DNA from: Candidatus Aminicenantes bacterium
GTDB taxonomy: Bacteria; Acidobacteriota; Aminicenantia; Aminicenantales; JAFGBC01
Direction of reading: 5' to 3'
Assembly: GCA_963702005.1 (NCBI GenBank)
Contig: OY969696.1
Location: 713,680-777,679 of the forward strand
DNA length: 64,000 nt
Both the position numbers and the translations under genes were made by a program. Under the pieces are notes generated by a model. It was not told the DNA's origin. It saw only the letters and a program-made list of their open reading frames with translations, and did no database searches. Positions 1 through 63,433 of this stretch are shown piece after piece (the stretch's first letter is position 1; every line of letters starts with the position of its first letter).

Positions 1-21
1 ACGAAGTATTTGTAAAAGACC

Positions 22-51
22 GGGGTCAAACCTACACTTTGTCACAAAGTG
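22..51. repeat. REP-like palindromic element (ggggtcaaacctacaCTTTGTcaCAAAGtg), inverted orientation, copy 1 of 4
   Basis: Sequence read directly. It is the reverse complement of the copies at 1074-1105, 4043-4071 and 63411-63433 and contains the palindrome CACTTTGT-CA-CAAAGTG. Confidence 0.7.
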
Positions 52-75
52 CAACTTAAGGAAGAAAAGGCGGTT

Positions 76-1014
76 TTATTTCGTCAGATTCTTTGTGATT
101 TCTTCAACAGCCTGACGGAGAACGTTGTTCTCACGAATGAGTGTTTTCATTCGGATTGAAATTTTCGCGATGCCGGATTGGCTGAGGTTGAAATAGTCGG
201 CCACGTCCTTGAGTGAATACCCCGCTTTCTTGCCTGCAATCCATATGACCGCATCTCTATTGAATTTGTTGTTCCGTCCCAAGACTCGATCCGATTCCGA
301 TTGAATCCGGTTCAGCGGGGGCTTTTCTATCAAACTCCGCAAAGCCGGAAGCTCCCGGTCTTTATGACGATCTGGATTTATCCGGCTCGTGATTTTCTCG
401 ACAAACTCAGGGCACCCCAGGATGGCCGTGCGTATGAAGTCCTGGCGGAGAGATTCGGGATTTCGGCCGGCTTGGCTCAGGACGAAAGAAGCGTAGAGGC
501 GTCTGGCTTGGGTTCTGTCTTGGCTGAATAGCCCGAGAACGAACTCGATTTTCAGCCAGGGAGGTGGTTTTCGAAGTCCGACATAGTCTCTATAGCTCGA
601 CCAGCAATATTGATCCGGCAGCTCCGCTATATCGGCGCGGACGGGATTTAAATGAATATAACTGGTAAGCAGTTGGGCGTAGGATTCCGCTTCGATCAAG
701 ATGCTTTTAAAACGGCCCTGGAAGAGGTGACCCACTCGTTTCTGCCTCTTGTTGAGATAAATGGAATAAGCGGAATTGATAAACTGCATGATTTGCGAGA
801 GGTTGCCTCTGGGCGTCTCGATCATGAAATGAAAATGATTCTCCATGAGGCAATAGGCGTGGAACTGTGCGGCATGCGTCTCGTAAGCCTCTTCAAGGAA
901 ATCCAGGAAGCGCAAATAATTCAAATTGTTGAAAAAGATCGGTTGTTTCTGATTCCCCCTGGAGGTTACATGATAAAAAGCGCCTTCGTATTCAATCCTG
1001 AACTGTCGTGCCAC
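76..1014 (-). CDS. REP-associated tyrosine transposase (RAYT, IS200-like Y1 HUH transposase) with C-terminal DnaA-C-like HTH
   Basis: ORF translation has the motifs FYHVTSRGN and YCLMENHFHFM (HUH/Y1 transposase fold) and a C-terminal segment AGYSLKDVADYFNLSQSGIAKI that resembles a DnaA C-terminal HTH. It is flanked by inverted REP copies. Confidence 0.75.
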   Translation of the reverse strand: MARQFRIEYEGAFYHVTSRGNQKQPIFFNNLNYLRFLDFLEEAYETHAAQFHAYCLMENHFHFMIETPRGNLSQIMQFINSAYSIYLNKRQKRVGHLFQGRFKSILIEAESYAQLLTSYIHLNPVRADIAELPDQYCWSSYRDYVGLRKPPPWLKIEFVLGLFSQDRTQARRLYASFVLSQAGRNPESLRQDFIRTAILGCPEFVEKITSRINPDRHKDRELPALRSLIEKPPLNRIQSESDRVLGRNNKFNRDAVIWIAGKKAGYSLKDVADYFNLSQSGIAKISIRMKTLIRENNVLRQAVEEITKNLTK

Positions 1015-1073
1015 ATGAATAGAGACTTGAGTCCCCGTCGATCTTTCTCACGATCGGATCTACGCTTGAATTA

Positions 1074-1105
1074 CACTTTATGACAAAGTGTAGGTTTGAC
1101 CCCGG
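1074..1105. repeat. REP-like palindromic element, copy 2
   Basis: cactttatgacaaagtgtaggtttgaccccgg has the same core as 22-51 in opposite orientation, forming a REP-RAYT-REP unit. Confidence 0.7.
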
Positions 1106-1695
1106 TCGACGTCTTTAGACAAAATCCCGGCTTTTTAAGGTCTTTATTTATGAAGAGAGCGCGTTCCGCTCGGTGTATCATAAAGACGGCTTTGAGGCCG
1201 GACGTAAAAGTGGATTTAGGAAGGATCTACGACCGGTTCGGGGAGAGGATGTTCCATTATCTGTCTGTCAAGCTCGGCTCGGCCCAGGACGCCGAGGACG
1301 TCCTCCAAGAGGTCTTTTATCGCTTGCTGAAGAATCCCTTAAGGCTCCGGCTCGTGCGCGATCAGGCCGCCTACATCTTCCGGACGGCCCGCAACGAGGC
1401 CCTTAGGTTCTTGGGCGGGAAAATCCGCGATCGGAAGATCTCCAGCCGGGCGCTCGAGCTCCAGGGCGTCATTAGGGAGTCCCTGACCGGGGTCGGCCGG
1501 GACGAGGAAGACAGCGCGGCCCGCGCTTTAGCGGGAATCCCCGAGGAACAGCGTGAGGTCATCATCCTCAAGATTTTCGAGGAGTTGACCTTCAAAGAGA
1601 TCGCTTCCGTTTGCGGCATTTCCATCAATACGGCGGCCAGCCGTTACCGGTACGGATTGGAGAAGCTCCGCGAGATCCTGGAGGAGAGACGATGA
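1096..1695 (+). CDS. ECF-type RNA polymerase sigma factor (sigma-70 family group 4). The true start may be the internal Met near 1150.
   Basis: Sigma region 2 and 4 character (DAEDVLQEVFYRLL; C-terminal LTFKEIASVCGISINTAASRYRYGLEKLR HTH). The stop overlaps the next start (ATGA). Confidence 0.7.
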   Translation: MTPVDVFRQNPGFLRSLFMKRARSARCIIKTALRPDVKVDLGRIYDRFGERMFHYLSVKLGSAQDAEDVLQEVFYRLLKNPLRLRLVRDQAAYIFRTARNEALRFLGGKIRDRKISSRALELQGVIRESLTGVGRDEEDSAARALAGIPEEQREVIILKIFEELTFKEIASVCGISINTAASRYRYGLEKLREILEERR

Positions 1696-2114
1696 ACGAT
1701 GTTCGTAAGACCGAGGAATTTCTGGAAAGGTTCCAGCGGAAGCCCGCGCCTCCCGGCCTGCGGGCGAAGCTCCTGGAGAGGGCCGGGCAGAGGAGGAGGG
1801 ATTCAAGGCTGCTTGGTCCGGCGGGCTGGGGAGTGCTCGGCGCGAGCCTCGTCCTGTTAACGCTGGCCTGGGCTTGCGACGGCTTACTATCTAAGCCCCT
1901 GGATCGACGGGTGTCGTCTGCTCTGGGCCGGTCCGGTTCCGAGCGGAATCCGGAAGAACAAGCCTGGAGTGAGCTAGAGAATGAGGTCCGTTTATCGAAC
2001 GCCGACCTTAAAATGTCTCCTTGGCTGGTCCGTCCGCCTGACGGCGAGAACAGCGTCGATCGGGAAACGATTCTTCTGCTCAAAACGATGAAGGAGGATT
2101 TTGATGAGCTCTAA
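1692..2114 (+). CDS. Putative anti-sigma factor (single-pass membrane protein)
   Basis: Translationally coupled to the ECF sigma gene (ATGA overlap). One predicted TM segment (GWGVLGASLVLLTLAWA). The size is typical for an anti-sigma factor. Confidence 0.45.
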   Translation: MNDVRKTEEFLERFQRKPAPPGLRAKLLERAGQRRRDSRLLGPAGWGVLGASLVLLTLAWACDGLLSKPLDRRVSSALGRSGSERNPEEQAWSELENEVRLSNADLKMSPWLVRPPDGENSVDRETILLLKTMKEDFDEL

Positions 2115-3414
2115 AACAGTGAGAATTCTGGCTCGGATCGGGGTTGGGGCGCTGGCCCTTCTCGCCGTCGGCCTCGCCCTTCGCGCCGTCCTTAATTATT
2201 CCTACGGAAAGAAGCTGGAGTCTTTGCTTGCGGAGATGAAAGCGTCCGGGGCGCCCATGACGCCTAAGGACGTAGAGCCGACCTGCCCGGCCGGGGATAA
2301 CGGCGCCCCTCTCTGGAATGCGGCCTCGGCCCTGCTGAATCTGGAGAACGAGGATAGAAGCCTCCTGGCCAACGGCTTCCTGGCTCTGAGATCTCGAAAC
2401 GTGCCGGGTAACGATCTCAGGAGTTCCCTGGAATCGATCATCGCCAAGAATCAAAAAGCCATTCAGATGCTGTTGGAGGCGTCCCGGAAGCCTTGCTTCA
2501 AAGACGAGGAAAAATGGCTGGATCCCAACAGGGACGGCTTCGCCGCCCGCTTGGTCAAAATCATCGGCGCCTCGAGGCTTTTGGCGCTGGACTCCGTTCT
2601 TAAGGCGGAGCAAGGCCGTAGCGAGGAGGCCGTCGCCGAGTGCCTGGCCGGCTTTCGCCTGATGAGAAGCGGCTTGGAGGACGCCTTCATGATCAACGAC
2701 CTCGTTTTGGTGGCCTGTGCCAAGCAGCTCGTTCTTGCCCTGCAGGTCATCGCTTCGGGTCGGGAGCTTCCCGCTCCCCTTCTGTCACAGATCATCGCCG
2801 AACTCGACGGCTCGGTATGGCATGACGGCATGATCCGGGCTTTGCGTATCGAACGCTTATTAATCCAGGACCACGGTCTTCGGGCGATTCGGGGGGAGGA
2901 GAAAAGCTCTTGGTCATGGCTTCTCCGGCCCATCATAAAATCCGAAATTATCTGGATGTCGTCTGTTTGGGACCGGATTATCCGGGACGCGCAGCGCCCT
3001 TATTATGAGAGCGATGGGCTGCGTCCTGCCATGGAGGATATCGAGAAGGACACTCCTTGGTATTTTCGGATGGCCGGGCTCCTCATCCCGAATGCGGCGT
3101 CCTTTGTTTTAAAAGAAGCAACCCTCGAAGCCCTTCTGGATGTAACCCGCCTGGGGATCGCCTGCAAGATCTACAAGGCCAAACACGGCGTTTTCCCGGA
3201 TTCGTTGACTCAGCTCGTCCCCGCCGTCCTGCCGGACCTCCCCGTAGATCCGTTCAGCGGGAAACCCTTCGTTTATAAAAAATCCGACTCCGGCTTCATC
3301 CTCTACAGCCTGGGGTCGAATAAAAAGGATGACGGCGGACGGGAAACCTGGGACATCACCCAATTAGTTATGGACAAGGATGACGACTGGGCTTGGCGCG
3401 AAACGGCCCGCTGA
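2101..3414 (+). CDS. Hypothetical membrane-anchored protein (third gene of the ECF sigma operon)
   Basis: 437-aa ORF with an N-terminal TM helix (ILARIGVGALALLAVGLAL). I recognised no family; coding-like composition. Confidence 0.5.
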   Translation: MMSSKTVRILARIGVGALALLAVGLALRAVLNYSYGKKLESLLAEMKASGAPMTPKDVEPTCPAGDNGAPLWNAASALLNLENEDRSLLANGFLALRSRNVPGNDLRSSLESIIAKNQKAIQMLLEASRKPCFKDEEKWLDPNRDGFAARLVKIIGASRLLALDSVLKAEQGRSEEAVAECLAGFRLMRSGLEDAFMINDLVLVACAKQLVLALQVIASGRELPAPLLSQIIAELDGSVWHDGMIRALRIERLLIQDHGLRAIRGEEKSSWSWLLRPIIKSEIIWMSSVWDRIIRDAQRPYYESDGLRPAMEDIEKDTPWYFRMAGLLIPNAASFVLKEATLEALLDVTRLGIACKIYKAKHGVFPDSLTQLVPAVLPDLPVDPFSGKPFVYKKSDSGFILYSLGSNKKDDGGRETWDITQLVMDKDDDWAWRETAR

Positions 3415-3439
3415 GCCGGACCCCTCCTTGAATTGCACG

Positions 3440-4040
3440 AAAGCTTTACAGGCTGCCCCGTGGCTTGCCACGGGGTGGAATGTATGCCTTGCCGAGGGGG
3501 TGATAAGGGGGACCGGAAAGTCCCCCTTATCCACAAAGGCCCTTGCTCGGGAGTGTGGTAAAGTATATGGGTGACGCTGAAACGGACGAGTCATTCGGTC
3601 TACGACACGTCCTACCATCTGGTCTGGTGTCCGAAGTACCGGAAGAAGATTTTCGAGCGGGTGGAAGTCCGGGAACGAGCGAAACAGATCGTGGGAGAGA
3701 TTTGCGAATCGTACGATATTGAAATCATCGAGATGGAAATTACCGAAGATCATATTCATTTGCTAGTATCATTTCCGCCATCGCGATCGATCGGGGAGGT
3801 CGTCAGGATCATAAAGAGCATGAGTGGGAGGGGGTTGTTTCGCGAGTTTGCGGGCTTGAAAAAGAAGCTGTGGGGCGGGGAAGTGTGGGAGGACGGATAT
3901 TTCGCAAGGACGGTCGGAGACCGGATGACGAGGGATGTGATCGCGAAGTACATCGTCAGTCACCGAGAACTGGAGCAAGGGCCTGCGCAGCTGGCCTTGA
4001 AGCTGCGCTCCTAATGCCCCGCGGCTTGCCGCGGGGATCT
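3440..4040 (+). mobile_element. IS200/IS605-family insertion sequence (tnpA only) with subterminal hairpins
   Basis: Left-end hairpin ccccgtggcttgccacgggg (about 3457-3476) and right-end hairpin ccccgcggcttgccgcgggg (about 4017-4036) flank the tnpA ORF. Confidence 0.65.
3571..4014 (+). CDS. tnpA: IS200/IS605 family transposase TnpA (Y1 HUH)
   Basis: Motifs YHLVWCPKYRKKIF and HIHLLVSFPP (HUH). The size of 147 aa is typical for TnpA. Confidence 0.85.
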   Translation: MTLKRTSHSVYDTSYHLVWCPKYRKKIFERVEVRERAKQIVGEICESYDIEIIEMEITEDHIHLLVSFPPSRSIGEVVRIIKSMSGRGLFREFAGLKKKLWGGEVWEDGYFARTVGDRMTRDVIAKYIVSHRELEQGPAQLALKLRS

Positions 4041-4042
4041 TT

Positions 4043-4071
4043 ACTTTGTGACAAAGTGTAGGTTTGACCCC
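4043..4071. repeat. REP-like palindromic element, copy 3 (abutting the IS200 right end)
   Basis: actttgtgacaaagtgtaggtttgacccc; same core as 1074-1105. Confidence 0.7.
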
Positions 4072-4079
4072 GAGCAGGA

Positions 4080-6290
4080 TCAGCGGAACAGGCCGGCCAG
4101 GTAGGGGCCGAGGCCGGTCTGCGTCGCGATCTTGAGCGCTTCCTCGGGCGGAACCGGACTTTTCCGGCGCAACGACTCGAGGATGCGGATGATGGAGTAA
4201 GCGACTTCGGCCGTCTGTCCCGCTTCTTTCCTCTTCGTCTTGAGATAGCCGATGGCGTCGAACAAGACGGCGTTGGCCTCCCCGTAGCCGACGGGCTTCC
4301 GGCGGCCGTAAAGGCGGACCCATTGGGGTTGGCTCAAAACGTCGTTGACGTGCATCAGGATGAGCGAGGTCGCCCGGCCGATCAGCTTGAGGTTGCTCGG
4401 GCTGACGTTGACCATCGTGTTCCCGATGACCCTGCCCAGCCGGGCCATGACGGCCGTCGAGTGGGCGTTGAGGAGCATTTTGAGCCCGACCTGCTCCCCG
4501 AGCCGGAGCGGGTCATCCTCGGTCTCGGCCGCGATCTGAACGAAAGGCGAGGACTTGGACAAAAGGCCCTTCTGGACCAGGGCCTCGCGGAGCCCGGCCG
4601 CACCTTGAACGGATCCGCCGGCCAGGATGAGGGCCGTCCCGGCGTCCTTTTTCGCGAAGAGTCCGAGGAACGCGCGGGAAGGAGACGTTTCATTCTTCAA
4701 CTCCTCGACCTCCGGTCCGAGAGCGATGGCAACCCCAAGGTCGTCCCGGCCGGGCCCCCGCTTGACGATGTTCGGCTCGGCGAATGAGAAGTCGTATTGG
4801 TACTGCTGATCGTCGCCGGCCCGCTTCAGGCTTTCCAGCGCGGCCGTCCGCAGGTAAGGATCCTCGATCTCCTCCTCGAACGGCTTTTGATAGAGGCCGG
4901 CCGAGAGTCCTCGAAATGGCCTCCCTAAAAATGCCCTCCAAGCGGCCCCCAGATCCGGCGCCGGAGTCCAGACCTGGATCCAGCATTTCCGCTTCGGCTC
5001 GTAGACGGTATCAAGGGGATAGAGCCGGAAGGTCGGGCTTCGTTCCGTGCCGTCTATGAAGACGGTGATCAGGCCGTCTGCGGCGAAATAAGTCGAGAAG
5101 CGGCCGGCGGCGTAGGCGTCGGATTCGCGCAACGTGAGGTCCGCCAGCGCCGGGATGCTCGATTGGACCGCCTCGTGGAGAGGGGCGAACCTCAGGAGCC
5201 TGTCGCTGAGTGGCGTCTCGTCCAAGGCAAAGCCGAGCCTCGCCATCTCCTTGGGCGCCAGGACCGTCCTCAGAGCCCTGTCCAGGGCGGTTTCCAGGAC
5301 CGTCCCGATGACCCAGGTTTCGATCGTCGTGGCCTGCATTCGGGTCGAGCCCGTGATGGCCTGGGGGCCGGTCGTCAGGTTGATCTTGGTGATGCCCGGG
5401 TCCTGGAGGACTTTCCGGCTCCGTTCGAGAGGGAGGAGCTTATCGTCGGGGTTGTTGTAGATGAAGTACAGGCTGAACCGGCTTTCGCCGGCGTCGACGG
5501 CTCCCGGCGCCGTCCAGTCTCCGCGCGCGGCCAGGATGGTCCCGATGACCGACGAGGTCTCCCCGCCCTCCGTGACGCAGATGACGACATCGCCTTTTTT
5601 GATCCCTCGGTCCCGGAGCTGGAGCCGGCCGATGAGTTGAAGATCTTCGAAGCCTTCGAGAGAGCTGATCAGGGCCCGGTCGCCGCCCGTCATCTCTCCG
5701 ATCAGGCGCCCCTCGGCATCCCCGCCGAAGCGGGCTCCGAGCTTGGCCCCGACCTTGGTTTCGGCCGCGGCCTTCCTCCAGAACGGCCTCCACAGGCCGC
5801 TTTCCATCTGCTTGGCCAGCCGGCCCGTGGCGCCGCAGCCGTAGATGTAGACGGAGCGGCCTTGGAGGAGGGCTCCCTCGACGGCCCGGGCCATCTGCTC
5901 GAGCCCGGCCGGGTCGGCGGCGAGGCTGTCGAGCTTGTCGACGATGTCCTGGTCGACCGAGACGATCATCCGGAGTCCGGCCGCCGCGTCCTTTCCGACC
6001 CGCTCGCTCAGGTTCCACGTCTTAGGATGCCGCTGCTCGGTCAGAAGGTCGTGGAGCTGGAATTGGGTTTTGTTCTGGACGTAGTCGATCGATTCGGCCG
6101 AGGCCTCGATGCCCAGGAATTTGAGGAGGCTCGTCTCGACCGAAGGCGGAGCCGTCTGTTCCTGGCCTCGCCCGGCCGCCAGGAAACCCGGCCGGCCCGG
6201 AGCGCAGACGAAGAGGGCGAGAATCAGCAACGAACCCAGGATGCGGGCGGTCCGGACGGCGCCCTCCTCATCCGTACTGATGCTGGTCAT
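4080..6290 (-). CDS. Exported protein with SIS (sugar isomerase, MurQ/GckR-like) domain motifs
   Basis: N-terminal signal peptide. Motifs IYGCGATGRLAKQ and DVVICVTEGGETSSVIGT resemble SIS-fold proteins. 736 aa. Confidence 0.4.
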   Translation of the reverse strand: MTSISTDEEGAVRTARILGSLLILALFVCAPGRPGFLAAGRGQEQTAPPSVETSLLKFLGIEASAESIDYVQNKTQFQLHDLLTEQRHPKTWNLSERVGKDAAAGLRMIVSVDQDIVDKLDSLAADPAGLEQMARAVEGALLQGRSVYIYGCGATGRLAKQMESGLWRPFWRKAAAETKVGAKLGARFGGDAEGRLIGEMTGGDRALISSLEGFEDLQLIGRLQLRDRGIKKGDVVICVTEGGETSSVIGTILAARGDWTAPGAVDAGESRFSLYFIYNNPDDKLLPLERSRKVLQDPGITKINLTTGPQAITGSTRMQATTIETWVIGTVLETALDRALRTVLAPKEMARLGFALDETPLSDRLLRFAPLHEAVQSSIPALADLTLRESDAYAAGRFSTYFAADGLITVFIDGTERSPTFRLYPLDTVYEPKRKCWIQVWTPAPDLGAAWRAFLGRPFRGLSAGLYQKPFEEEIEDPYLRTAALESLKRAGDDQQYQYDFSFAEPNIVKRGPGRDDLGVAIALGPEVEELKNETSPSRAFLGLFAKKDAGTALILAGGSVQGAAGLREALVQKGLLSKSSPFVQIAAETEDDPLRLGEQVGLKMLLNAHSTAVMARLGRVIGNTMVNVSPSNLKLIGRATSLILMHVNDVLSQPQWVRLYGRRKPVGYGEANAVLFDAIGYLKTKRKEAGQTAEVAYSIIRILESLRRKSPVPPEEALKIATQTGLGPYLAGLFR

Positions 6291-13433: not shown

Positions 13434-13921
13434 AGGTCGTCATTTTTCTGGGCAGCGAATCCGATTTCGACGTCATCCAGGAAGCCCTGGAGGTCCTCAA
13501 GGAGTTCGGCGTCCCCTTCCGGCTCGAAGTCAGCTCGGCCCACCGCAGCCCGGAGCGGACCTTGCGCCTTGTCCGGGAGACGGAGGCGGCCGGGGCCGAG
13601 GTCTACATCGCCGTGGCCGGGAAGGCGGCTCATCTGGCCGGCGCCGTGGCCGCCCAAACCGTCCGCCCCGTCATCGGCGTGCCCGTCGACAGCGCCGCCC
13701 TGAGCGGTCTCGACGCCCTCCTCTCGACCGTCCAGATGCCGAAGGGCATCCCGGTCGCGACGATGGGGCTCGGCAAAATGGGCGGCACGAACGCCGCGCT
13801 GCTGGCGATCGCCATCCTGAGCCTGAGCGATCCCGGCTTGAAGGACAAGCTCCTCGCCTACCGGGCCCGGATGGCCGCCCAGGTCGAAGCGGGCTCGGCC
13901 AAGCTCCGGCGGAAGTTATGA
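13430..13921 (+). CDS. purE: N5-carboxyaminoimidazole ribonucleotide mutase
   Basis: VVIFLGSESD...SSAHRSPER...YIAVAGKAAHLAG motifs. Start overlaps the purD stop. Confidence 0.9.
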   Translation: MKVVIFLGSESDFDVIQEALEVLKEFGVPFRLEVSSAHRSPERTLRLVRETEAAGAEVYIAVAGKAAHLAGAVAAQTVRPVIGVPVDSAALSGLDALLSTVQMPKGIPVATMGLGKMGGTNAALLAIAILSLSDPGLKDKLLAYRARMAAQVEAGSAKLRRKL

Positions 13922-13988
13922 CCCGTTCGCCGATACTAACCCCCGCTTTTCAAAGCGGGGATGAGAAGCGAGGCTCAGGGTTAACCCC
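13922..13988 (+). repeat. Conserved ~65-nt structured intergenic element, copy 1 (hairpin ccccgcttttcaaagcgggg + gagaagcgaggctcagggttaa)
   Basis: About 85% identical to 28570-28632; both lie immediately 3' of a + strand gene stop. Confidence 0.5.
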
Positions 13989-14034
13989 CTACAAGACCGG
14001 GCAATCATGTCGGGGAGTTGAGGGGTTGACCTCC

Positions 14035-17037: not shown

Positions 17038-17112
17038 CGGGGAGTAGCGCAGCCTGGTTAGCGCGCCTGCCTTGGGAGCAGGAGGTCGTCGGTTCAAATC
17101 CGATCTCCCCGA
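17038..17112 (+). tRNA. tRNA-Pro (anticodon TGG)
   Basis: Manual cloverleaf: 7-bp acceptor CGGGGAG/CTCCCCG, D-stem GCGC, anticodon loop CTTGGGA, T-loop TTCAAAT. CCA is not encoded. Confidence 0.8.
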
Positions 17113-17177: not shown

Positions 17178-17251
<74 letters not shown>

Positions 17252-28545: not shown

Positions 28546-28569
28546 GATAGGCGGGAGGGCCGGCTCACC

Positions 28570-28632
28570 CGTTCGCCGACGCTACCCCGCCATGAAAGGC
28601 GGGGACGAGAAGCGTGGCTCAGGGTTAAACCT
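28570..28632 (+). repeat. Conserved ~65-nt structured intergenic element, copy 2
   Basis: cgttcgccgacgctaccccgccatgaaaggcggggacgagaagcgtggctcagggttaaacc; homologous to 13922-13988. Confidence 0.5.
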
Positions 28633-28689
28633 GATCAAGCCCAGCCTTGCAGTACACACGAACCGGGAACGGTTCGTGGGTGCCGGCAT

Positions 28690-28911
28690 TCAGCACTCAT
28701 AAGCCGTAAACGGCTTATGAGTACAGTCGCTCCAATGCCTGTAATGCGCGGTTCCCACAGAATTGAGTCCATGGAGCTCCGGGCCGGCGAGCAGCCTTGC
28801 AGCACTCATGACCCATAAACGGGCCATGAGTACTGCGAAACGCCTGCACTCATGACCCATAAACGGGCCATGAGTACTGCGAAACGCCTGCACTCATGGC
28901 TTCCATGAGTG
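28690..28911. repeat. Array of about four hairpin-containing ~44-nt repeats (two perfect tandem copies at 28802-28845 and 28846-28889) between convergent genes
   Basis: Unit gcactcatgacccataaacgggccatgagtactgcgaaacgcct, with variants cagcactcataagccgtaaacggcttatgagtac and cactcatggcttccatgagtg. Each contains a ctcatg...catgag stem. Confidence 0.7.
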
Positions 28912-37229: not shown

Positions 37230-37314
37230 AATTCGGGGGACACACGACTTAATTCCGGACTCCTTCTTTATCGACAATAGCAGCTTGAGAATTAAGTCGT
37301 GTGTCCCCCGAATT
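37230..37314. repeat. Perfect 26-bp inverted repeat (aattcgggggacacacgacttaattc / gaattaagtcgtgtgtcccccgaatt) with a 33-nt spacer, overlapping the comEC stop codon
   Basis: Read directly: left arm 37230-37255, right arm 37289-37314. Confidence 0.8.
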
Positions 37315-41811: not shown

Positions 41812-42429
41812 TCAGACGGCAGGCTCGGAAGGGACCGGTGTTTTTTTGCCGGGCGGCCAGAGCACCTTGTTGAGGCCGGTCAGGCCGAAGGCGGCCTCCA
41901 TCCGTTCCAGGAGGTTGGGGTATAGGCCCTCGGCTCCGGCCTTGACCGCGTCCTCCCACTCGGCGAGGAGCTCGGAAACCTCGAAGTCGTGCCCCTTGCG
42001 GCCGAGATGCTGGAGGCCCCGCAGGGCCTGCCAGTGGGTGATCATGATAAGGGCCAGGGCGCCGAAGAAGACGTTGGGGCCGGGGAGAAGCGTGGCCAGG
42101 CCGCTCAAGGGGAGGAGCAGGGTTTCTCCGACGAGGAGCAGGATATGGCGGGTCCGCTGCTTCTGGAGGAACAGGAAGAAGCGGAAGCGGACCTTCTTAT
42201 CCTCGGTCCGGGCGGAGACGAGGATGCGGACCGAAGGACCCTCGAGCCGGGCGACCCGGGCCAGGGCCTGCTCCTGACGCAGGGAGCGCTGAGGGAGGAG
42301 GAGAAGCTTGGCTTTGGCTTTGTCCCAAAGCCTTCGCCAGCGGGTGGTACGGACTTCGATCGGCCGAACGGGCTCGGTCGAGAAGAAGCTGTACTTATGG
42401 CCGGCGTCTCGGACGAAGAAGAATGTCAT
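41812..42429 (-). CDS. Hypothetical membrane protein (real start at MTFFFVRDAGHKY; the upstream Arg-rich ORF part is an artefact)
   Basis: Coding-like only from the internal Met. Two predicted hydrophobic helices. Confidence 0.4.
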   Translation of the reverse strand: MTFFFVRDAGHKYSFFSTEPVRPIEVRTTRWRRLWDKAKAKLLLLPQRSLRQEQALARVARLEGPSVRILVSARTEDKKVRFRFFLFLQKQRTRHILLLVGETLLLPLSGLATLLPGPNVFFGALALIMITHWQALRGLQHLGRKGHDFEVSELLAEWEDAVKAGAEGLYPNLLERMEAAFGLTGLNKVLWPPGKKTPVPSEPAV

Positions 42430-42470
42430 GCATTCTCTGGTACGCGCCGCCGCCGCGAAAGTTGGCCGGC

Positions 42471-44505
42471 TCAGAAGCTCCGCGCGCAGATCCCGCCGCC
42501 CGCGGTCCCGACGTAGATCTTGCGGGCGGCGCCGTCGACCTGGATCGAGTTCACGCTCTTGACCGGCAGGTCGCCGGAGAGGTCCGTCCAGGTCGCCCCC
42601 TTGTCGGCGCTGTGCCAGAGGCCGTTCCAGTTCCCGACAAAAAGCTCGTTCGGATTGAGCTTGTTGACGGCCAGGCAATCGCCGGAATAGGGCGCGTTGG
42701 CGAGCTTGGTCCAGGAGCCGCCGCCGTCCGTGGAGGCGAAAATGCCTTCCCACCCGGTCGCGGCATAGACCGTGGCGGGAGAGCCGCCGGACACGGCCAG
42801 GGCGTCGATCGGGCACCCGGTCGAGGGCGGGCTCAACGAGGTCCAGTTGGCCCCGCCGTCCGTGCTTTTATGCAGGACCGGCGAGCCGGAGGAGGTCGTG
42901 CCGGCGACATAGATCGTCCGGGTATTGGAGGGGTCGAACGCGGCGGCGCAAGCCTGGCTGTTTTCATCGGTCCGAATCCGGACCTGGGTCCAAGTCAGGC
43001 CGCCGTCGGTCGAGATGAAAACGCCCATGTAATTTTTGCCGCCGACCACGATGTATCCCGCCGCCAGGACGCGGTTGGGAACGGCCGGGTCGACGACCAG
43101 GATCAGCCCCTGGCAGCCGGCGCCGGGAAGAAGCTGTTGAAAGTTGGCGCCTCCGTCTACAGACCTGTAGACGCGGGGGGTGCTTCAGCCGTAGGTCGAG
43201 AGATAAACCCGGTTCGGGTCCGCGCTGGGGACGGCCAGGTCGGCGATGTTGTCGCTCCCCAGGAAATCGGGGAGCTTCGTCCAGCTCGCGCAGGCGTTCG
43301 CGCTCTTGAAAACCCCGACCGACGTCGCCGCCGCGTACGCCGTGGCCGGAGCGATCGCCGAGGACGAAGAGCCGGGCATCCGGAACCCCCCGATGTTCGT
43401 CGCCAGGATCCCCGCCTGGGACGGCAGGAAGGTTTTCCCGGCGCTGGTGCTTTTAAAGACCCCCGCCGTCGCGGAGACGTGAACCGTGCTTCCCGAGATC
43501 AAGACCTTCGACGCGAGTCCGGCGAAGCCGGTCCCGCATTTGGTCCAATCCGTTCCGCCGTTCGTGCTCTTCCAGACTTCCTTGGACCCGCCGCCGTACA
43601 CGATGCTGGGATGGACCTTGTTCGAAGGCCAGGGACTCCAGGTAAGCGATATAAGACGGGCTGTTCTGCTTCTTCCAAGTGGTCCCGGAGTTGGCCGATA
43701 TCGCCACCCCCGCTACCGTGTTTTGGTAGGACACCAAGATCCGGGAGGGATTCGAGGGGTCGATGGCGACCGTGTAAGCATAGTTGACTATGGTGTGGAG
43801 ATCGTTCATGAATGCGGGCGTGACGTTCTTCCAGGCCCCCCCGCCGTTCGTGGAGCGGAAGACGCGGGCGCGATAATTCGAGCCGTCGTAGAAGTACCCG
43901 CAGAAGAAAATGGTGGACGGATTCTTGGGGGAGATGGCGATATCGCGGCCGTAGGCGTAGCTCGACGTCGCCTCCATCGTCTTATGGCTCCAGGTTTGGC
44001 CGCCGTTCGTCGTCATGAAGACGGCGAGGCATGTCTTCCAACTGGACGTGTCATAGGTATAACTCCCCGCGACGAAAATGACCTTGGGATTTTGGGGGTT
44101 GATGGCGATCCTCCCGGAATAGCCCTGCCGGTATTGGCCGAACGGAAGCTTCGTGAAGGTCGACCCTTGATCGACCGATTTATAAAGTCCGTCCGAGGCC
44201 AGGATATAGATCGTCCGCGGATTTTTAGGGTCCAGGACGAAATCGTAAGCGTAATCGCCGAGGATGGACTTGAGGGTCCAGCTCTTGCCGTTGTTGACGG
44301 ACCGGTACACCAGCCCGCGCTCGGACACCGCATAAAGCTCGGAGGGCGATTTGAGGTTGCGGGCGATGCCCATGATGTTGCCGCCGGTGGGGCCGAGCTG
44401 GGTCCAGACCGCCGCTTGATCCACAGGGCGGGCGGCGCGCATGCCGGGGCCGCCGATGAGAAGGGCGCCAAGGATTGCCCAGATATAAACGGCCGGTCTT
44501 TTCAT
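42471..44505 (-). pseudogene. BNR/Asp-box repeat beta-propeller protein, paralog D: frameshift near 43450-43600 plus in-frame TGA at 43185-43187
   Basis: Three ORF pieces (43453-44505, 43185-43601, 42471-43049) with a signal peptide and repeated S-x-D-x-G-x-T-W motifs. The last two pieces are in the same frame, separated by one TGA. Confidence 0.6.
43154..43187 (-). other. In-frame TGA plus SECIS-like hairpin (CGUCUACA-GGUC-UGUAGACG) of paralog D
   Basis: The hairpin starts 11 nt 3' of the UGA on the coding strand. The loop is GGUC. It is coded by VYRSVD using the rare codons GUA, AGG and UCU. Confidence 0.6.
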
Positions 44506-44547
44506 TCTCCCTCCTCCGGAAAAATCCGCATTTTCCCTTCTCGGCCA

Positions 44548-44575
44548 TTATAGCGGGGGGTGTCCCGGCGGTCAA
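44548..44575 (-). promoter_or_regulatory. Sigma-70-like promoter of paralog D (TTGACC-N17-TATAAT)
   Basis: The same arrangement is conserved upstream of paralogs A, B and C. Confidence 0.45.
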
Positions 44576-44644
44576 CAGAGGTTGAGGCTCGGCGTCCGAG
44601 CCGCTGGGAGGCGACTGGTCGTCACCCCGGCGCCGGCCCGCTCC

Positions 44645-46666
44645 CTAAAACGTCCGCTTCCAGATGCCTCCACCTTGGGTCCCGACGTAGAGGGTGTGGT
44701 TCGTCGCGTTGAAAACGAGCTGATTTACGTACGGAACGGGCAGTCCCTGGCTGACGTCGGTCCAGGTCAGGCCCCGGTTCTGGCTGTAAAAAACGTTCTG
44801 GTTGTTTCCGACGAACACTTGGTTGGGATTGTTCTTGTTGACGGCCACGGCCCGGAAACCGTAGCTGTATGTTGTGAAGGTGCACTTGGTCCAGGAGGTC
44901 CCGCCGTTCGCACTCCGCCAGAGCTCACTGTTGGTCCCGACATAGACGATATTCGAGTCCTGGGGATCGACGGCGATCGCCTGGGGCGGGTATTGAATCC
45001 CGTTCGTGATCGCGGTCCAGTTGACCCCCCCATCCGCGCTCCTATACACGAGAGCGCTAGAGTTGGAGGTATATCCGCCGACGTAGAGGATGTTCGCGTC
45101 GCCCGGCGCGACCGCCACCACGGTCGATTGGCTGCCCTCTTGGGTGCTGATCCGGATGGGCGTCCAGTTCGTCCCCCCGTCCTTGGAGACGACGATTCCC
45201 ATCGACGTGACGCTCCCTTGTTTGACTGATCCGGTAATGATAAGTTGGCTGAAGTTCTGGGGATTCGCGTAGAGGCTTCCGTATCGGCACTCGTAGAGAT
45301 CGTAAATCTGTTGGAACGTCCGTCCTCCGTCTACAGACCTGTAGACGAATTCGCCCTGCGGTCAGCCGCTGGGCTTGACATAGATGGTATTGGGATTCGT
45401 GGGGTGAACGACGATGCTGGCGACGAGCGTGCTGCCCACGAATGTTCCGCAGGTCGTCCAGGCCGATCCCCCATTGGCCGTCTTAAAGAGGGCATATCCC
45501 GTGATCCCGGCGTAGATGGTGCTCGGCGAAGAAGGCGAGACGCCTAAAGCCGCGATGTTCGAGCCGCGGATGCCGGCGTGGCTGGGATTCCAGGTGGAGC
45601 CGCCGTTCTTGCTCAGGAAAATCCCAACCTGGCTTGCCAGGTGGACATTGGACCCGGCGGCCAGGATTATGCGGCTCTCTCCATGGATGCCGTCGCTGTA
45701 AGCTTTCCAGGTGATCCCGCCGTCCGTGCTCTTGAGGACGCTGTAGACGTAATCGAGCTCGCCTCCGGCATAAAGGATCTTGGAGTTGGCGGAATCGGCC
45801 GTGATGGAGTACACATACGTGATCCCTGGAGTCTGTTGGGCCTTCCAGCTTCCGCCGGCGTTCGTCGTCCGGGCGATGCCGTTGTTGTGGGCCACCCAGG
45901 CTTTTTTCGGGTCGTGGGCGTCTACATAGATGGCGTTACAGGCGGGATAGGTTCCGTCGAAAATCGCGGCGCCGCCGACGCTCGTCCAGGTGCTTCCTCC
46001 GTTCTTCGAAACGTAGGCGCGGCCGGTATCGACGCTGTTCTTATAGTCGTAGCCGCATAGATAAATGTAATTGGGGTTGGCCTTGGCAAAAACGACGTCA
46101 TATCCATAGCCGGAATCGGCCGAGTTCGGGAACCTCTTGACGGTCCAAGACGCGCCGCCGTTCGTCGTTTTAGCGACGGCGATATCGCTTTTGTAGTTCA
46201 CGTTGTCATACCGGTATGACCCGGCGATCATAATGATCTGGGGATTGGCCGGGTGGACGGCGATCCGGCCGTACCAGCCGGTAAATCCGGCCGGGAATGC
46301 GCGAACCGTGAAATTTTTGCCCTTGTCCGTGCTCTTGTGAAGATAGCCGTAGCTGAGGACGTAGATCGTGCTCGGGGTCTTGGGATCGACAGCGAGGTCG
46401 TAGATCGCCTGGGAGACGATGGATTGGCGCGTCCAGCTCGCGCCGCTGTTCGTGGATCTCCAAACCTGACTCGGCCAGCTCGAGCTCGCGGCATAGAGCT
46501 CGGCCGCCGACTTGGGATTCCGGGCCAGGCCGCGGATATCCCCTCCGTAGGGGCCGACCGGGGTCCAGGAACCGGCCCGGTCGGGCCGCTCGATCGGGGC
46601 GGAGCCGCGCCCGAAGAGGAAGACGGCGCACAGGACCGCCAGGATGATGACGACGGCTTTTTTCAT
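44645..46666 (-). CDS. Secreted BNR/Asp-box repeat beta-propeller protein, paralog A; single in-frame TGA at 45362-45364 (candidate selenocysteine or read-through)
   Basis: The N-terminal ORF (signal peptide MKKAVVIILAVLCAV) ends at TGA. The next 53 codons have no stop and read PQGEFVYRSVDGGRTFQQIY, a canonical BNR motif. They are in the same frame as the C-terminal ORF 44645-45202. Confidence 0.65.
45328..45364 (-). other. In-frame TGA plus SECIS-like hairpin (CGUCUACA-GGUC-UGUAGACG) of paralog A
   Basis: Perfect 8-bp stem with GGUC loop, 14 nt 3' of the UGA. Confidence 0.6.
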
Positions 46667-46708
46667 AGGCCCTCCTCCGGGGTTCGAGCTCGTTGCATCC
46701 GTGACCGG

Positions 46709-46738
46709 ATTATAGGCAATTTCCCGCCCGGCGGTCAA
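46709..46738 (-). promoter_or_regulatory. Sigma-70-like promoter of paralog A (TTGACC-N18-TATAAT); RBS GGAGGAGGG before the ATG
   Basis: ttgaccgccgggcgggaaattgcctataat on the coding strand. Confidence 0.45.
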
Positions 46739-46762
46739 TACAAAGGGTTGAAGGGGGGCTGC

Positions 46763-48784
46763 TTAAAACGTCCGCTTCCAGATGCCTCCACCTTGGGTCC
46801 CGACGTAGAGGGTGTGGTTCGTCGCGTTGAAAACGAGCTGGGCTACGTACGGAACGGGCAATCCCTGGCTGACGTCGGTCCAGGTCAGGCCTCGGTTCTG
46901 GCTGTAGAAAACGCCCTGGCTGGACCCGACAAACACCTCGTTGGGGTTGTTGTTGTTGACGGCCACAGCATCGAAATTGTAGGCGTTGGTCGGGAACGTG
47001 CATTTCGTCCATGAGGCCCCGCCGTTCGAACTCCGCCAAACTTCCCAAAAGGTCCCAACATAGACGATGTTCGGATCCTGGGGATCGATGGCGATAGATT
47101 GGGGCACGTATTGGATTCCGTTCGTGACGGAGGTCCAGTCAACCCCTCCGTTCACGCTCTTATAGACAAGCCCGGTATAGGTAGCGCTCTGGCCGCCGAC
47201 ATAGAGGAGGTTAGCGTTGCTGGGCGCGACCGCCGCGACGTTCGATTGGCTGCCGTCCTGGCTGCAGATTTTGACCGGCGTCCAACTCGACCCCCCGTTC
47301 GTCGAGAACACGATTCCCATCGAGGTTACGCCCCCCTGCTTGACCGAGCCCGTGATCAGGAGGAAGTTGATGTTCTGGGGGTTCGCGTAAAGGTTTCCGT
47401 ACCGGCATTCGTAGAGATCGTAAATCTGCTCGAATTTCCGTCCTCCGTCTACAGACCTGTAGACGAATTCGCCCTGGGGTCAGCCGCTGGGCTTGACGTA
47501 GATGGTGTTCGGGTTCGAGGGATGGACGACCACGCTGGCGACGAGATCGCTGCCGTAGAATTCGGTACAGGGCGTCCAGGCGGAACCCCCGTTGACCGTC
47601 TTGAGCAGAGCGTAGCCTTGGATTCCGGTGTAAATCGTGTTCGGCGAGGAAGGGGCGATGGCGAAGGCTTTGATATTTGCCGCCCGGATTCCGTTGTGGC
47701 CGGGGTTCCAGGTCGTGCCGCCGTTCTTGCTCAAGAAGATTCCCGCTTGCGTCGCCTGGTGGACCTTGGAGCCGGCGGCCAATATTTGGCGACATTCTCC
47801 GTAGAGGCCGGTGCTCGAAGCCTTCCAGGCATTACCCCCGTCGGTGCTCTTGAGGCTGCTGTAGACCAAATTGTACTTGCCGCCCGCGTAGAGGATATTC
47901 GGGTTGGAGGAATCGGCCGCGATGGCCGTAACATGCGTGATCTGGGGCGTCTGCTGGGCCTTCCAGCTCCCGCCGGCGTTCGTGGTCCGGGCGATGCCGC
48001 TGTCATGGCCCACCCAGGCTTTTTTCGGGTCGCGGGGATCGACGTGAATGGAGTAGCAGGCAGGGTAGCTGTTGTTGAAGACGGCCGACGAGCCGACGCT
48101 CGCCCAGGTGCTCCCGCCGTTCTTGGAAACGAAGACCCGCGCGGCTGTGACGCTGTTTTTCTGATCATACCCACAGAGATAAATGTAATTGGGGTTGCTT
48201 TTGGCGAATACGATGCCGCGGCCATAACCATAGTCGGTCAGATTGGAAAGTCTTTTGAGCGTCCAGGTCGCGCCGCCGTTCGTCGTCTTGGCGACGGCGA
48301 TTTCGGAATGCCAATCGGCGGTGTTGTAATAATAAGACCCGACGACCATGATAATCTTGGGATTAGCCGGGTGGACGGCGATCCGGCCGTTGTAGGACTG
48401 GAAATCGTCCGGGAACCGATGGTTCGAGAAGGTCTTGCCTTTATCCGTGCTCGTGTAGAGATAACTTTCGCTGAGGAGGTAAATCGTGCTCGGGGTCTTG
48501 GGGTCGATGGCGAGGTCGTAAATCCATTGCATGACGATCGATTGGCGCGTCCAGCTGGCGCCGCTGTTCGTGGATCTCCAAATCTGGCTCGGAGAACTCG
48601 AGCTCACGGCGTAGAGTTCGGCCGCCGACTTGGGATTCCGGGCCAGGCCTTGGATATCCCCTCCGTAGGGGCCGAGCGGGGTCCAGGAACCAGCCCGGTC
48701 GGGCCTGTCCGCCGGGCCGGGGCTGCGCCCGAATAGAAAGACGGCGCACAGGACCGCCAGGATGATGACGACGGCTTTTTTCAT
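46763..48784 (-). CDS. Secreted BNR/Asp-box repeat beta-propeller protein, paralog B; in-frame TGA at ~47480-47482
   Basis: Same architecture as paralog A, about 85% identical. The N-terminal and C-terminal ORFs are in the same frame, 53 codons apart. Confidence 0.65.
47445..47482 (-). other. In-frame TGA plus SECIS-like hairpin of paralog B
   Basis: cctccgtctacagacctgta on the plus strand gives the coding-strand GUCUACA-GGUC-UGUAGAC hairpin. The exact base coordinates are ±1. Confidence 0.55.
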
Positions 48785-48826
48785 GGGCCCTCCTCCGGGG
48801 TTCGAGCTCGTTGCATCCGCGACGGG

Positions 48827-48856
48827 ATTATAGGCAATTTCCCGGCCGGCGGTCAA
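48827..48856 (-). promoter_or_regulatory. Sigma-70-like promoter of paralog B
   Basis: ttgaccgccggccgggaaattgcctataat. Confidence 0.45.
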
Positions 48857-48963
48857 GAAACCGCGGTAAAAAGGCCATCCTCAGAACTTCCTCCACCAGA
48901 TCCCCGCCCCCTCGGTCGCGGCAAAAACTCTCCGGCCGGCCGCGGAATCGGCGTCAGCGCCGA

Positions 48964-51000: not shown

Positions 51001-51041
51001 GGACCCTCCGTCGGAAGCCGCGTTCCTTTTATCCTGGCTGA

Positions 51042-51071
51042 ATTATAGGGAATTCTCCGCCCGGCGGTCAA
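51042..51071 (-). promoter_or_regulatory. Sigma-70-like promoter of paralog C
   Basis: ttgaccgccgggcggagaattccctataat. Confidence 0.45.
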
Positions 51072-51140
51072 GAAACCGCGGAAAAAAGCCGTTCTCTCCT
51101 CTTGACAAGCCGCGGGGGTTTCAATAACTTAGGTAAAGCC

Positions 51141-56331: not shown

Positions 56332-56427
56332 GGGAGGGTATAGGTTCCGGTGGGCCTTCTGGACTTCAAATCCAGCACGGGGCCGTGAAACGTCCCGGGT
56401 GGGTTCAACTCCCACACCTTCCCGCCA
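56332..56427 (+). tRNA. selC: tRNA-Sec (selC), anticodon TCA
   Basis: 96 nt. 8-bp acceptor stem (GGGAGGGU/ACCUUCCC, one G·U). Anticodon loop CUUCAAA. Long extra arm. T-loop GGGTTCAACTCCCAC. CCA encoded. Lies 12 nt after the selB stop. Confidence 0.85.
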
Positions 56428-61154: not shown

Positions 61155-61371
61155 AAAAACACCCTCCGCCTGGAATCAGCAGGGTCCGAATCTGATTCCC
61201 GATTATTTTATATAGGAGGGCGGTCGGGGAGTCAACCTTTCGACACCCATAGCCGTTTCCGGCTTAGTATGAGTGCTGCAAGGCTGCTCCCCGGCCCCGG
61301 ATTGATTTGTGGAAGCTTTTCTGGTAAACAAGGGAGACAGGAACCGACATCGCGGGAAGGAGGTAGGGCTC

Positions 61372-63410: not shown

Positions 63411-63433
63411 TGACAAAGTGTAGGTTTGACCCT
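63411..63433. repeat. REP-like element, copy 4 (partial palindrome)
   Basis: tgacaaagtgtaggtttgaccct. Confidence 0.6.

Follow-up and report, generated by a model that had tools for sequence, protein, structure and literature searches.

REP-associated tyrosine transposases (RAYTs) are Y1 enzymes encoded between inverted copies of a dispersed repetitive extragenic palindrome (REP), an arrangement called a REPtron; doublets of the palindromes, termed REPINs, fold into long hairpins (Nunvar 2010, PMC2817692; Bertels & Rainey 2011, PMC3116915; Ton-Hoang 2012, PMC3333891; structure 4ER8, PMC3479197). A second class of Y1 proteins, TIRYT, whose units are called TIRtrons, was described by Di Nocera et al. 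2013 (PMC3733652); Quentin et al. 2018 (PMC6006769) identified it with TnpA-Y1 subclass 2.1. TIRYT proteins are long, with a C-terminus resembling DnaA_C or a helix-turn-helix (HTH) domain (Bac_DnaA_C, HTH_23 or HTH_28-like); their terminal inverted repeats (TIRs) start GGGG[AT][CG]A[CG] and sometimes belong to dispersed repeat families with dimers. Here we analyze a 64-kb stretch of a Candidatus Aminicenantes genome (hereafter the window) that carries a RAYT gene, an operon for an extracytoplasmic function (ECF) sigma factor and an insertion sequence (IS) of the IS200 type among copies of a single repeat. In our judgment the locus is probably made up of a resident RAYT gene flanked by REP-like TIRs, a polymorphic ECF module bracketed by copies of the same repeat, and an IS200 that entered one of these copies secondarily.

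Placed by its features rather than by a tree with reference proteins, the locus best fits a TIRYT/TIRtron (TnpA-Y1 subclass 2.1) variant of the REP-RAYT system. As in TIRtrons, the Y1 protein is long, with a putative HTH-like domain at its C-terminus, and its gene is flanked by long TIRs; the outer end of these, GGGGTCAA, agrees with the published motif at seven of eight positions, the last being A instead of C or G. Partial self-complementarity and membership of a moderately abundant family, in which singlets stand beside dimers, are both on record for TIRtron repeats and are seen in the present repeat and its copies in a related genome. Within the phylum Acidobacteria a sharply delimited TIRYT group has been described; the host phylum here is Aminicenantes. 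Near subclass 2.1 genes, Quentin et al. report having found nothing REP-like (PMC6006769); by contrast, the repeat here carries a clear hairpin and forms REPIN-like doublets. With REPtrons it shares the inverted copies of an extragenic palindrome, dispersed in a related genome, around the gene, the doublets forming long hairpins, the apparent retention of the gene at one syntenic locus over long divergence, and an N-terminal domain whose top fold match is the E. coli RAYT. However, at 312 aa the protein is twice as long as the 165-aa E. coli RAYT, its profile score falls just under the NCBIfam equivalog cut-off, and GTAG, which REPs carry at the 5' foot of the hairpin, stands here at the 3' foot, with a conserved 10-nt tail after it.

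The RAYT gene and its repeat family

The 21-mer ACAAAGTGTAGGTTTGACCCC has four matches in the window against 0.00 expected from 100 dinucleotide shuffles (Table 1), and all four copies are intergenic. The RAYT open reading frame (ORF) is enclosed by a 43-nt inverted repeat with arms at 18-60 and 1065-1107 that are 91% complementary. Each arm has GGGGTCAAACCTAC as its outer end and an 8-bp hairpin on its inner side. Going outward from the gene, about 8 nt (CTTGAATT) lead into the hairpin (G/A)CACTTTGT-G-ACAAAGTG(T), followed by GTAG (on the complementary strand, CTAC at the 5' foot) and the tail GTTTGACCCC. The left copy follows this order with the hairpin CACTTTGT-G-ACAAAGTG, while the copy at 1073-1103 carries one substitution in the palindrome (CACTTTaTGAC). 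As single-stranded DNA (ssDNA), singlet hairpins are modest, at about -6 kcal/mol and z about -2 to -3: the left copy folds at -6.0 kcal/mol, the first of the direct-repeat copies that bracket the ECF module (DR1) at -6.2 kcal/mol (z -2.7), and the 43-mer rebuilt from the two parts of the second (DR2) at -6.0 kcal/mol (z -3.2), like the others. The copy at 63411-63433 lacks the 5' arm, and folding predicts no hairpin for it; it ends on the first base of the stop codon of a minus-strand gene (63433-63435). No doublets were found in the 64-kb window, and an Rfam search of positions 1-4100 and of the other repeats returned no family.

A one-genome-per-species scan for the exact 20-mer recovered 20 copies, 17 of them on 12 contigs of the Aminicenantes metagenome-assembled genome (MAG) PFL55 and three in a Victivallaceae MAG. 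About 36 copies are recognizable in 86 kb of DNA fetched from PFL55, from loci (L numbers) that were chosen because they contain the repeat. The PFL55 copies occur as singlets, as doublets with short spacers and as perfect 42-nt palindromes GGGGTCAAACCTACACTTTGT(G/C)ACAAAGTGTAGGTTTGACCCC, a head-to-head doublet form that folds into a 19-bp hairpin of -21.5 kcal/mol (z -9.9); doublets are present at L008 2367-2407 and L007 5436-5477 and in L015 and L010. In most copies with a hairpin, the foot of the 5' arm reads T[AG]CAC. The outer end, in the form GGG(G)TCAAA(C/G)CTAC, also lies beside homologues at 44-51% amino acid identity: GGGGTCAAACCTACACAAT in L104 (RAYT 48% identical), GGGTCAAACCTACTCTTTTGACAAA in L110 (51%), where doublets occur on either side of the gene, and GGGGTCAAAGCTACACATTTGACA in L107 (44%, a different locus). 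Inverted copies flank the RAYT gene in L011, L018, L103, L104 and L110 as well. The initial annotation had proposed a REP-RAYT-REP unit and four copies of a REP in the window, and both proposals hold, as does the view that this is a genuine REP family and no local coincidence; its fourth copy, beside the TlpA genes, is present but reduced to a 3' arm and tail.

Two further observations concern the repeat. The Victivallaceae MAG (D100SM.bin.29) carries three to four copies of an element with the same outer 21 nt (GGGGTCAAACCTACACTTTGT) and a different inner part (TACTTTTGAGCT). Two of these copies flank a Vsr-like endonuclease ORF, and the 8-kb loci that were fetched showed no RAYT. We looked at the hits as a possible transfer; only the outer 21 nt are shared, and the recurrence of this outer end beside distant RAYT homologues would account for the 20-mer hits. 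Separately, some copies show stretches of 8-15 nt duplicated in tandem, with a period of up to 19 nt, that run from the outer end of the repeat into the first flanking bases (for example TTTGACCCCGAAGA twice). They are present at 7 of 47 copies, compared with 2.4% of random 55-mers from the same loci that contain any such duplication, and may be the footprint of repeat insertion or rejoining.

The protein encoded between the inverted repeats matches Pfam Y1_Tnp (8.9e-13) and NCBIfam REP_Tyr_transpos (E 4e-22; 78.7 bits against a cut-off of 80) and scores 14 bits with the IS200 model. Its homologues number more than 7,300, mostly of about 310-350 aa, and many carry the JGI name 'REP element-mobilizing transposase RayT'. 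H60/H62 and Y119 (YIHLNP) are invariant across 12 homologues down to 43% identity. A PDB sequence search gave a spurious hit only, and the relationship surfaced by fold search: the top PDB match of the AlphaFold model (pLDDT 75.5) is 4ER8, the E. coli RAYT bound to REP (TM 0.75 on target), which outranks the IS608 and ISDra2 transposases. When the last 88 residues were modeled alone (pLDDT 85), a five-helix domain was predicted whose top TM matches, 0.65-0.67 at non-significant E values of 0.35-0.74, are DnaA domain IV (1J1V, 3PVP). Pfam returned a sub-threshold HTH_3 match only (E 0.056) for the C-terminal 130 aa, and PF08299 (Bac_DnaA_C) is precomputed in 9 of the 120 RAYT homologues listed. 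Exact-sequence look-ups with the 312-aa RAYT and with the 147-aa TnpA of the IS200 found no match; a 282-aa call of the window RAYT (P0001) led to L017, a contig of the same strain.

RAYTs have been described as staying at one locus with vertical descent (PMC5581495), and conserved neighbors suggest that the gene studied here is an old resident of its locus. The RAYT gene directly follows a gene of about 730 aa for a SIS-domain protein in L011 (PFL55), in L018 (a JGI contig, RAYT 70% identical), in L104-106 and in L110-112 (48-51%); in the window and L103 these genes are separated by the ECF module. The SIS-RAYT neighborhood is found in six distinct relatives with RAYTs 48-81% identical to the window protein, and along this series SIS identity to the window declines from 81% to 60-61%. 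Beyond RAYT, opposite SIS, the relatives have a radical-SAM/acetyltransferase/ATP-grasp cluster; the window begins at the left repeat, so that side is out of view. The homologue at 44% identity (L107) is at another locus. The RAYT gene may be regulated through the small hairpin that lies between its start codon and the right repeat: the stem changes yet stays complementary in L011 (CCAT/ATGG), L018 (CTAT/ATAG) and L103 (CCGT/ATGG), as judged by direct reading of the sequences. The PFL55 RAYT (L011 1519-2434) is 91% identical over residues 1-244, after which about 33 residues are missing and the sequence continues in another frame; the C-terminal domain is thus disrupted, and the gene is either a pseudogene or affected by an assembly error.

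An IS200 inside a repeat copy

The IS200/IS605-family element resembles the IS200 group, with IS608 as the paradigm for cleavage directed by guides, in having tnpA only, subterminal hairpins without TIRs, and a position 3' of a short target that is not duplicated. More than 1,700 TnpA homologues were found, several at 85-96% identity and some labeled Aminicenantes. A metagenome scan yielded 80 loci with IS200 relatives and about 60 distinct copies showing both end hairpins. These hairpins (CCCCGYGGCTTGCCRCGGGG) are conserved among the relatives, and alignment fixed the ends of the element: the left starts GAAA(N)CCTTTGCAG, and the right stops 8 nt past the hairpin, with TTTAC in the window's subgroup. 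The left flank ends TGCAC (3434-3438), compared with TACAC (four independent sites) and TTTAC in the nearest relatives.

Bounded in this way, the IS200 sits inside the third repeat copy, in the 5' arm of the hairpin and 3' of TGCAC. Joining 3415-3438 to 4045-4072 places GCCGGACCCCTCCTTGAATTGCAC directly before TTTGTGACAAAGTGTAGGTTTGACCCCG and restores an intact repeat with no duplication. An empty site is available in L103, which is 81% identical across RAYT and the operon: here the same repeat stands uninterrupted directly after the stop codon of the 437-aa homologue, with no IS. L011 also carries an uninterrupted repeat. In L017, an independent assembly of the same strain, the repeat/IS junction is present and the contig breaks 22 nt into the IS, as a repeated element would lead one to expect. 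To judge from the interrupted and empty sites, the IS200 insertion is later than the repeat. It had been proposed that the third copy abuts the right end of the IS, and preferential insertion at the REP 3' side had been named as a point to check. The repeat does touch the IS, but the 'AC' at 4043-4044 belongs to the IS end TTTAC, the repeat starts with GCCGGACCCCTCCTTGAATTGCAC on the other side of the element, and the insertion is in the 5' arm.

The 4 nt directly 5' of each IS200 hairpin co-vary with the left-flank target and with the right terminal tetranucleotide, as in IS608. A rule of guide/target complementarity (positions 1-2 antiparallel, 3-4 in register) holds at 53 of 59 left ends (guides shuffled: mean 9.7, maximum 18 in 1,000 trials) and 52 of 59 right ends (shuffled mean 32, maximum 41); because these copies also served to frame the rule, the shuffle test shows covariation of the IS608 kind and not the exact geometry. 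Apart from this origin of the rule in the data set rather than in IS608 biochemistry, nothing essential separates the element from the IS200 group. In the window, the left guide GCTG calls for GCAC and the right guide AATG for TTAC, and both are observed. Other IS elements are known to land in REPs, among them IS1397, ISKpn1, IS621 and ISPpu9 (Tobes & Pareja 2006, PMC1525189). The present IS likewise interrupts a REP hairpin, but those elements belong to the IS3, IS110, IS4, IS256 and IS5 families and have a demonstrated REP preference, whereas none is shown here. For IS200 itself the association is only occasional (1 of 25 copies in S. Typhimurium LT2; PMC1525189).

Could the IS200 and the repeat be tied more closely than by a chance landing? 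According to the initial annotation two Y1 transposases use or sit at the same REP; in its strong form this would make the repeat a shared substrate of RAYT and TnpA and part of the IS200 end. Both enzymes are of the Y1/HUH type, the repeat touches the right end of the IS, and the IS-terminal TAC mimics the repeat's CAC. Yet the IS ends are GC-rich hairpins unrelated in sequence to the AT-rich REP hairpin, the roughly 60 IS200 relatives with the same ends include none in, or adjoining, a REP of this type, and the repeat is intact without the IS in L103, while in the window its left part lies on the other side of the IS. With no other IS copy in a repeat and with end hairpins of its own, the IS200 does not use the REP, and we give a shared substrate almost no credence. 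It is also unlikely, though far less so, that this IS200 lineage has come to aim at the REP foot, its guide having drifted from GTTG (target ACAC) to GCTG (target GCAC), in keeping with the foot variants CTACAC and TTGCAC. GCTG is unique among the 59 copies, the nearest relatives having GTTG; the T[AG]CAC foot is common among the repeats; REP feet account for only two of the 172 GCAC or two of the 19 TGCAC sites in the window (both strands); and the break of L017 inside the IS suggests several copies. However, this is a single observation picked for its coincidence, the chance is about 10% if TGCAC is taken as the target, the four ACAC-targeting relatives are not in REPs, and the Salmonella IS200 is REP-associated in only the one copy cited above. 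The guide-matched tetranucleotide happens to form the foot of the repeat hairpin.

A polymorphic ECF module between direct repeats

The ECF sigma gene is followed by two genes without a Pfam or NCBIfam hit. From its position the 140-aa protein is a candidate anti-sigma factor. The third gene, for a 437-aa protein, has 67 homologues, and their named sources are all Aminicenantes but one (the weakest, Armatimonadota). These homologues follow sigma and 140-aa genes in five of the five contexts looked up, and the order of the three genes is conserved in L101, L103, L113 and L116. A C-terminal stretch of the 437-aa protein, PVDPFSGKPFVYKKSDSGFILYSLGSNKKDDGG (window 3180-3360), is reminiscent of the conserved C-terminus of type II secretion pseudopilins (GspG-like); no profile hit supports the resemblance.

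The module (1150-3414) is bracketed by direct repeats of about 50 nt, each consisting of the right repeat plus 11 inner nt; these 11 nt of RAYT-side sequence were not found beside other repeat copies. Window positions 16-1107 and 4043-5474 are contiguous in L011, and the equivalent regions are contiguous in L018, which makes 1108 to 4042 an indel. Both relatives are without the module and have kept one full repeat copy. By comparison, L103 has the order RAYT, repeat, ECF sigma, 140-aa gene, 431-aa gene, repeat, SIS; its DR1 and DR2 are identical over 50 nt (GCCGGATCCACGCTTGAATTGCACTTAGTGTCAAAGTGCAGGTTTGACCC) and differ from the window's. L101/L102 (SIS 71% identical) have radical SAM, ECF module and SIS with no RAYT and no repeat, and L104 and L110, the deepest relatives, have SIS-RAYT without the module. 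Module homologues at 43-44% identity lie at other loci, adjoining DUF5128 genes. Within the ECF module the window and L103 are 84% identical, and either is 69% identical to L101. Of the initial proposal that two Y1 elements bracket the ECF operon, what stands is that direct repeat copies do so; the IS200 forms no bracket, and the repeat it interrupts does. The further suggestion of a REP-mediated local rearrangement or accessory islet was essentially right, in that the module is a presence/absence polymorphism among relatives.

These arrangements are most simply ordered with the SIS tree, ((L018, L011, L103), W), L101, then L104 and L110 (W, the window). RAYT would be ancestral at the locus. 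The module would have arrived next to the right repeat of RAYT in the lineage ancestral to both L101 and the clade of the window, and the second repeat copy would already have been in place in the ancestor of the window and L103. L011 and L018 would have lost the module between the direct repeats, most likely by recombination (or slippage) between these roughly 50-nt sequences, and L101 would have lost the RAYT unit. The IS200 would have arrived later, by its own peel-and-paste mechanism, at a guide-matched tetranucleotide and without target duplication. By analogy with E. coli TnpA-REP and IS608 (PMC3333891, PMC3479197, PMC6006769), the RAYT-type enzyme would recognize the hairpin-plus-tail repeat in ssDNA, then cleave and rejoin it, so that a population of singlets and doublets would be kept and spread while the gene stays put; the C-terminal HTH-like domain may bind the conserved double-stranded end. 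Two other histories were set aside. One, suggested by L101, makes the ECF module ancestral and RAYT the newcomer; L104 and L110 are SIS-RAYT-radical SAM/acetyltransferase loci without the module, and the SIS tree agrees with them. The other, a composite transposon with the operon as cargo between two Y1 elements, is at odds with L103, which has the same layout without the IS200, and with L101, which has the module without either element.

Several points weigh against the reconstruction that we favor. The canonical REP hairpin foot, 5'-GT[AG]G, was looked for in the repeat and is absent, and the protein scores 1.3 bits under the curated REP_Tyr_transpos cut-off. Repeat counts cover the window and the PFL55 loci, and the cutting and movement of these repeats by this RAYT are proposed by analogy. 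L101 is without DR2 as well as RAYT, which demands extra steps. At the L011 junction a second partial tail (AGGTTTGACCC repeated) is present, so that the junction is no textbook single-crossover product unless DR2 was already so duplicated. Finally, the RAYT tree, ((W, L011), (L103, L018)), conflicts with the SIS tree: nucleotide identity in RAYT is 84.5% for the window and L011 and 83.9% for L103 and L018, while in SIS it is 92-96% among L103, L011 and L018 and about 85% to the window. This discordance suggests recombination within the locus, and recombination or transfer would blur the order in which the module was gained and lost.

The same discordance would also speak for a history in which L011 and L018 never had the module, with SIS-RAYT ancestral and the DR1-ECF-DR2 allele spread among the window, L103 and L101 by transfer and homologous recombination, and the deep outgroups L104 and L110 are indeed without the module. 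We doubt this account, however. The SIS protein of module-bearing L103 is 90-92% identical to those of L011 and L018 (over a fragment of 115 aa only for L103; L011 and L018 are 90% identical over 467 aa), divergences in the ECF module parallel the SIS tree, and the second repeat tail of L011 lies at the SIS stop codon, where L103 has DR2. A more active role for RAYT, in which it would cut the two direct repeats as IS608 TnpA cuts its ends and excise the module with one repeat as a circle that could reinsert at repeats, appears highly unlikely. The bracketing repeats are on the same strand, two relatives lack the module and retain one full repeat, the L103 repeats are 100% identical over 50 nt yet differ from the window's, and the unexplained tandem duplications at repeat ends would be footprints of excision chemistry. 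On the other hand, direct repeats of 50 nt suffice for ordinary recombination or slippage, the module is seen at no other repeat, and no RAYT/Y1 gene was called near the distant module homologues that were looked up at other loci, although repeats were not searched for there. We also know of no precedent for the movement of kilobase cargo by a RAYT. Enzyme-catalyzed excision is thus less likely than ordinary recombination and more interesting; if true, a resident RAYT-type enzyme would be a recombinase for host gene modules.

Other features of the window and what the locus offers

Coordinates of the features are collected in Table 1. A further repeated element, roughly 115 nt long and containing a hairpin (ccccgcttttcaaagcgggg), occurs in the window and in the PFL55 MAG with 83-91% identity between them. 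Two inverted REP/TIR copies enclose it in L003 and L007, like a miniature RAYT unit; in the window no REP adjoins it, and it has no Rfam match. Another palindromic family, unrelated in sequence (GCACTCATGACCCATAAACGGGCCATGAGTAC), is present at 28693-28889 and 61269-61297, with three units at tandem-like spacing in the 28.7-28.9 kb region. Beside the GCACTCATGACCCATAAACGGGCCATGAGTAC units, the 29-nt stretch 28781-28809 is matched in inverted orientation, with 97% complementarity, at 61.27 kb. The 26-nt arms of a perfect inverted repeat (AATTCGGGGGACACACGACTTAATTC) lie at 37230-37255 and 37289-37314, separated by a 33-nt spacer. On the minus strand, a paralogous gene array rich in internal repeats (42400-51100 and 59300-61200) contains duplicated blocks with a 2118-nt period; its signal-peptide/upstream regions at 46607-46700 and 48725-48818 are near-identical, and a third copy at 50941-51034 is 70% identical. 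The window also carries a selenocysteine tRNA (73.8 bits; 56332-56423) and two ordinary tRNAs (17038-17112 and 17178-17251).

Table 1. Features of the RAYT locus, its repeat family and related repeats (window positions unless a locus number is given).
Feature	Position	Strand	Description
ACAAAGTGTAGGTTTGACCCC copy 1	22-42	-	exact
ACAAAGTGTAGGTTTGACCCC copy 2	1083-1103	+	exact
ACAAAGTGTAGGTTTGACCCC copy 3	4051-4071	+	exact
ACAAAGTGTAGGTTTGACCCC copy 4	63413-63433	+	1 mismatch
Left TIR/REP copy	18-60	-	downstream of RAYT stop codon; minus strand reads CTTAAGTTGCACTTTGTGACAAAGTGTAGGTTTGACCCCGGTC
RAYT/TIRYT gene	76-1014	-	312 aa; N-terminal HUH-Y1 nuclease (H60-F-H62, Y119-IHLNP); C-terminal helical HTH-like domain of about 85 aa
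Small hairpin	1039-1056	-	between right repeat and RAYT start codon; stem CGATC/GATCG, loop with GAGAAA (gene strand)
DR1	1054-1104	+	right TIR/REP (1065-1107) plus 11 inner nt (CGGATCTACG...); first direct-repeat copy bracketing the ECF module
ECF-type sigma-70 factor	1150-1695	+	181 aa from ATG at 1150; Pfam Sigma70_r2 and r4_2; TIGR02937 sigma70-ECF 62.6 bits, cut-off 42.9; gene call in L017
140-aa protein, anti-sigma position	1692-2114	+	one predicted membrane helix
Membrane-anchored protein, third module gene	2101-3414	+	436/437 aa
DR2, left part	3415-3438	+	GCCGGACCCCTCCTTGAATTGCAC; begins right after TGA of the 437-aa gene; ends with IS200 target TGCAC
IS200/IS605-family element	3439-4044	+	tnpA only, 606 bp; left end starts GAAAGCTTTACAGG; right end TTTAC (4040-4044)
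IS200 left-end hairpin	3456-3475	+	-10.1 kcal/mol
IS200 5' untranslated region hairpin	3502-3531	+	
IS200 tnpA	3571-4014	+	Pfam Y1_Tnp 5e-40; NCBIfam transpos_IS200 146 bits, cut-off 55
IS200 right-end hairpin	4017-4036	+	-11.2 kcal/mol; same orientation as left
DR2, right part	4045-4072	+	TTTGTGACAAAGTGTAGGTTTGACCCCG; joined to 3415-3438 gives intact repeat, no target duplication
SIS-domain protein	4080-6290	-	736 aa; MurQ-like matches; conserved RAYT neighbor in relatives, synteny anchor
Degenerate solo copy	63411-63433	+	3' arm and tail only (GTGACAAAGTGTAGGTTTGACCCT); between convergent TlpA/thioredoxin-like genes
Victivallaceae copies	L002 3776-3795 and 4728-4745; L004 722-741; L016 6780-6799		
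Tandem duplications at repeat ends	L003 1410-1450; L003 1221 (-); L007 5898 (-); L011 1412-1450 (-); L012 2152 and 2936; L002 3778 (-)		
Element of about 115 nt	13916-14030 and 28567-28642; L003 1297-1411; L007 5930-6041; L011 6644-6703		

The locus is explained by known element types and is not a new one, and current understanding is unchanged. What it adds is a documented long-form, TIRYT-like RAYT with a hairpin-bearing repeat family and REPIN-like doublets in an uncultured phylum, a set of relatives in which, on the reading that we favor, a repeat-bracketed regulatory module appears before its arrival, after it and lost again, and a clean empty-site case of an IS200 inside such a repeat at a guide-predicted tetranucleotide. 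Collectively, these provide guidance for annotation and material for testing how Y1 enzymes shape intergenic DNA.

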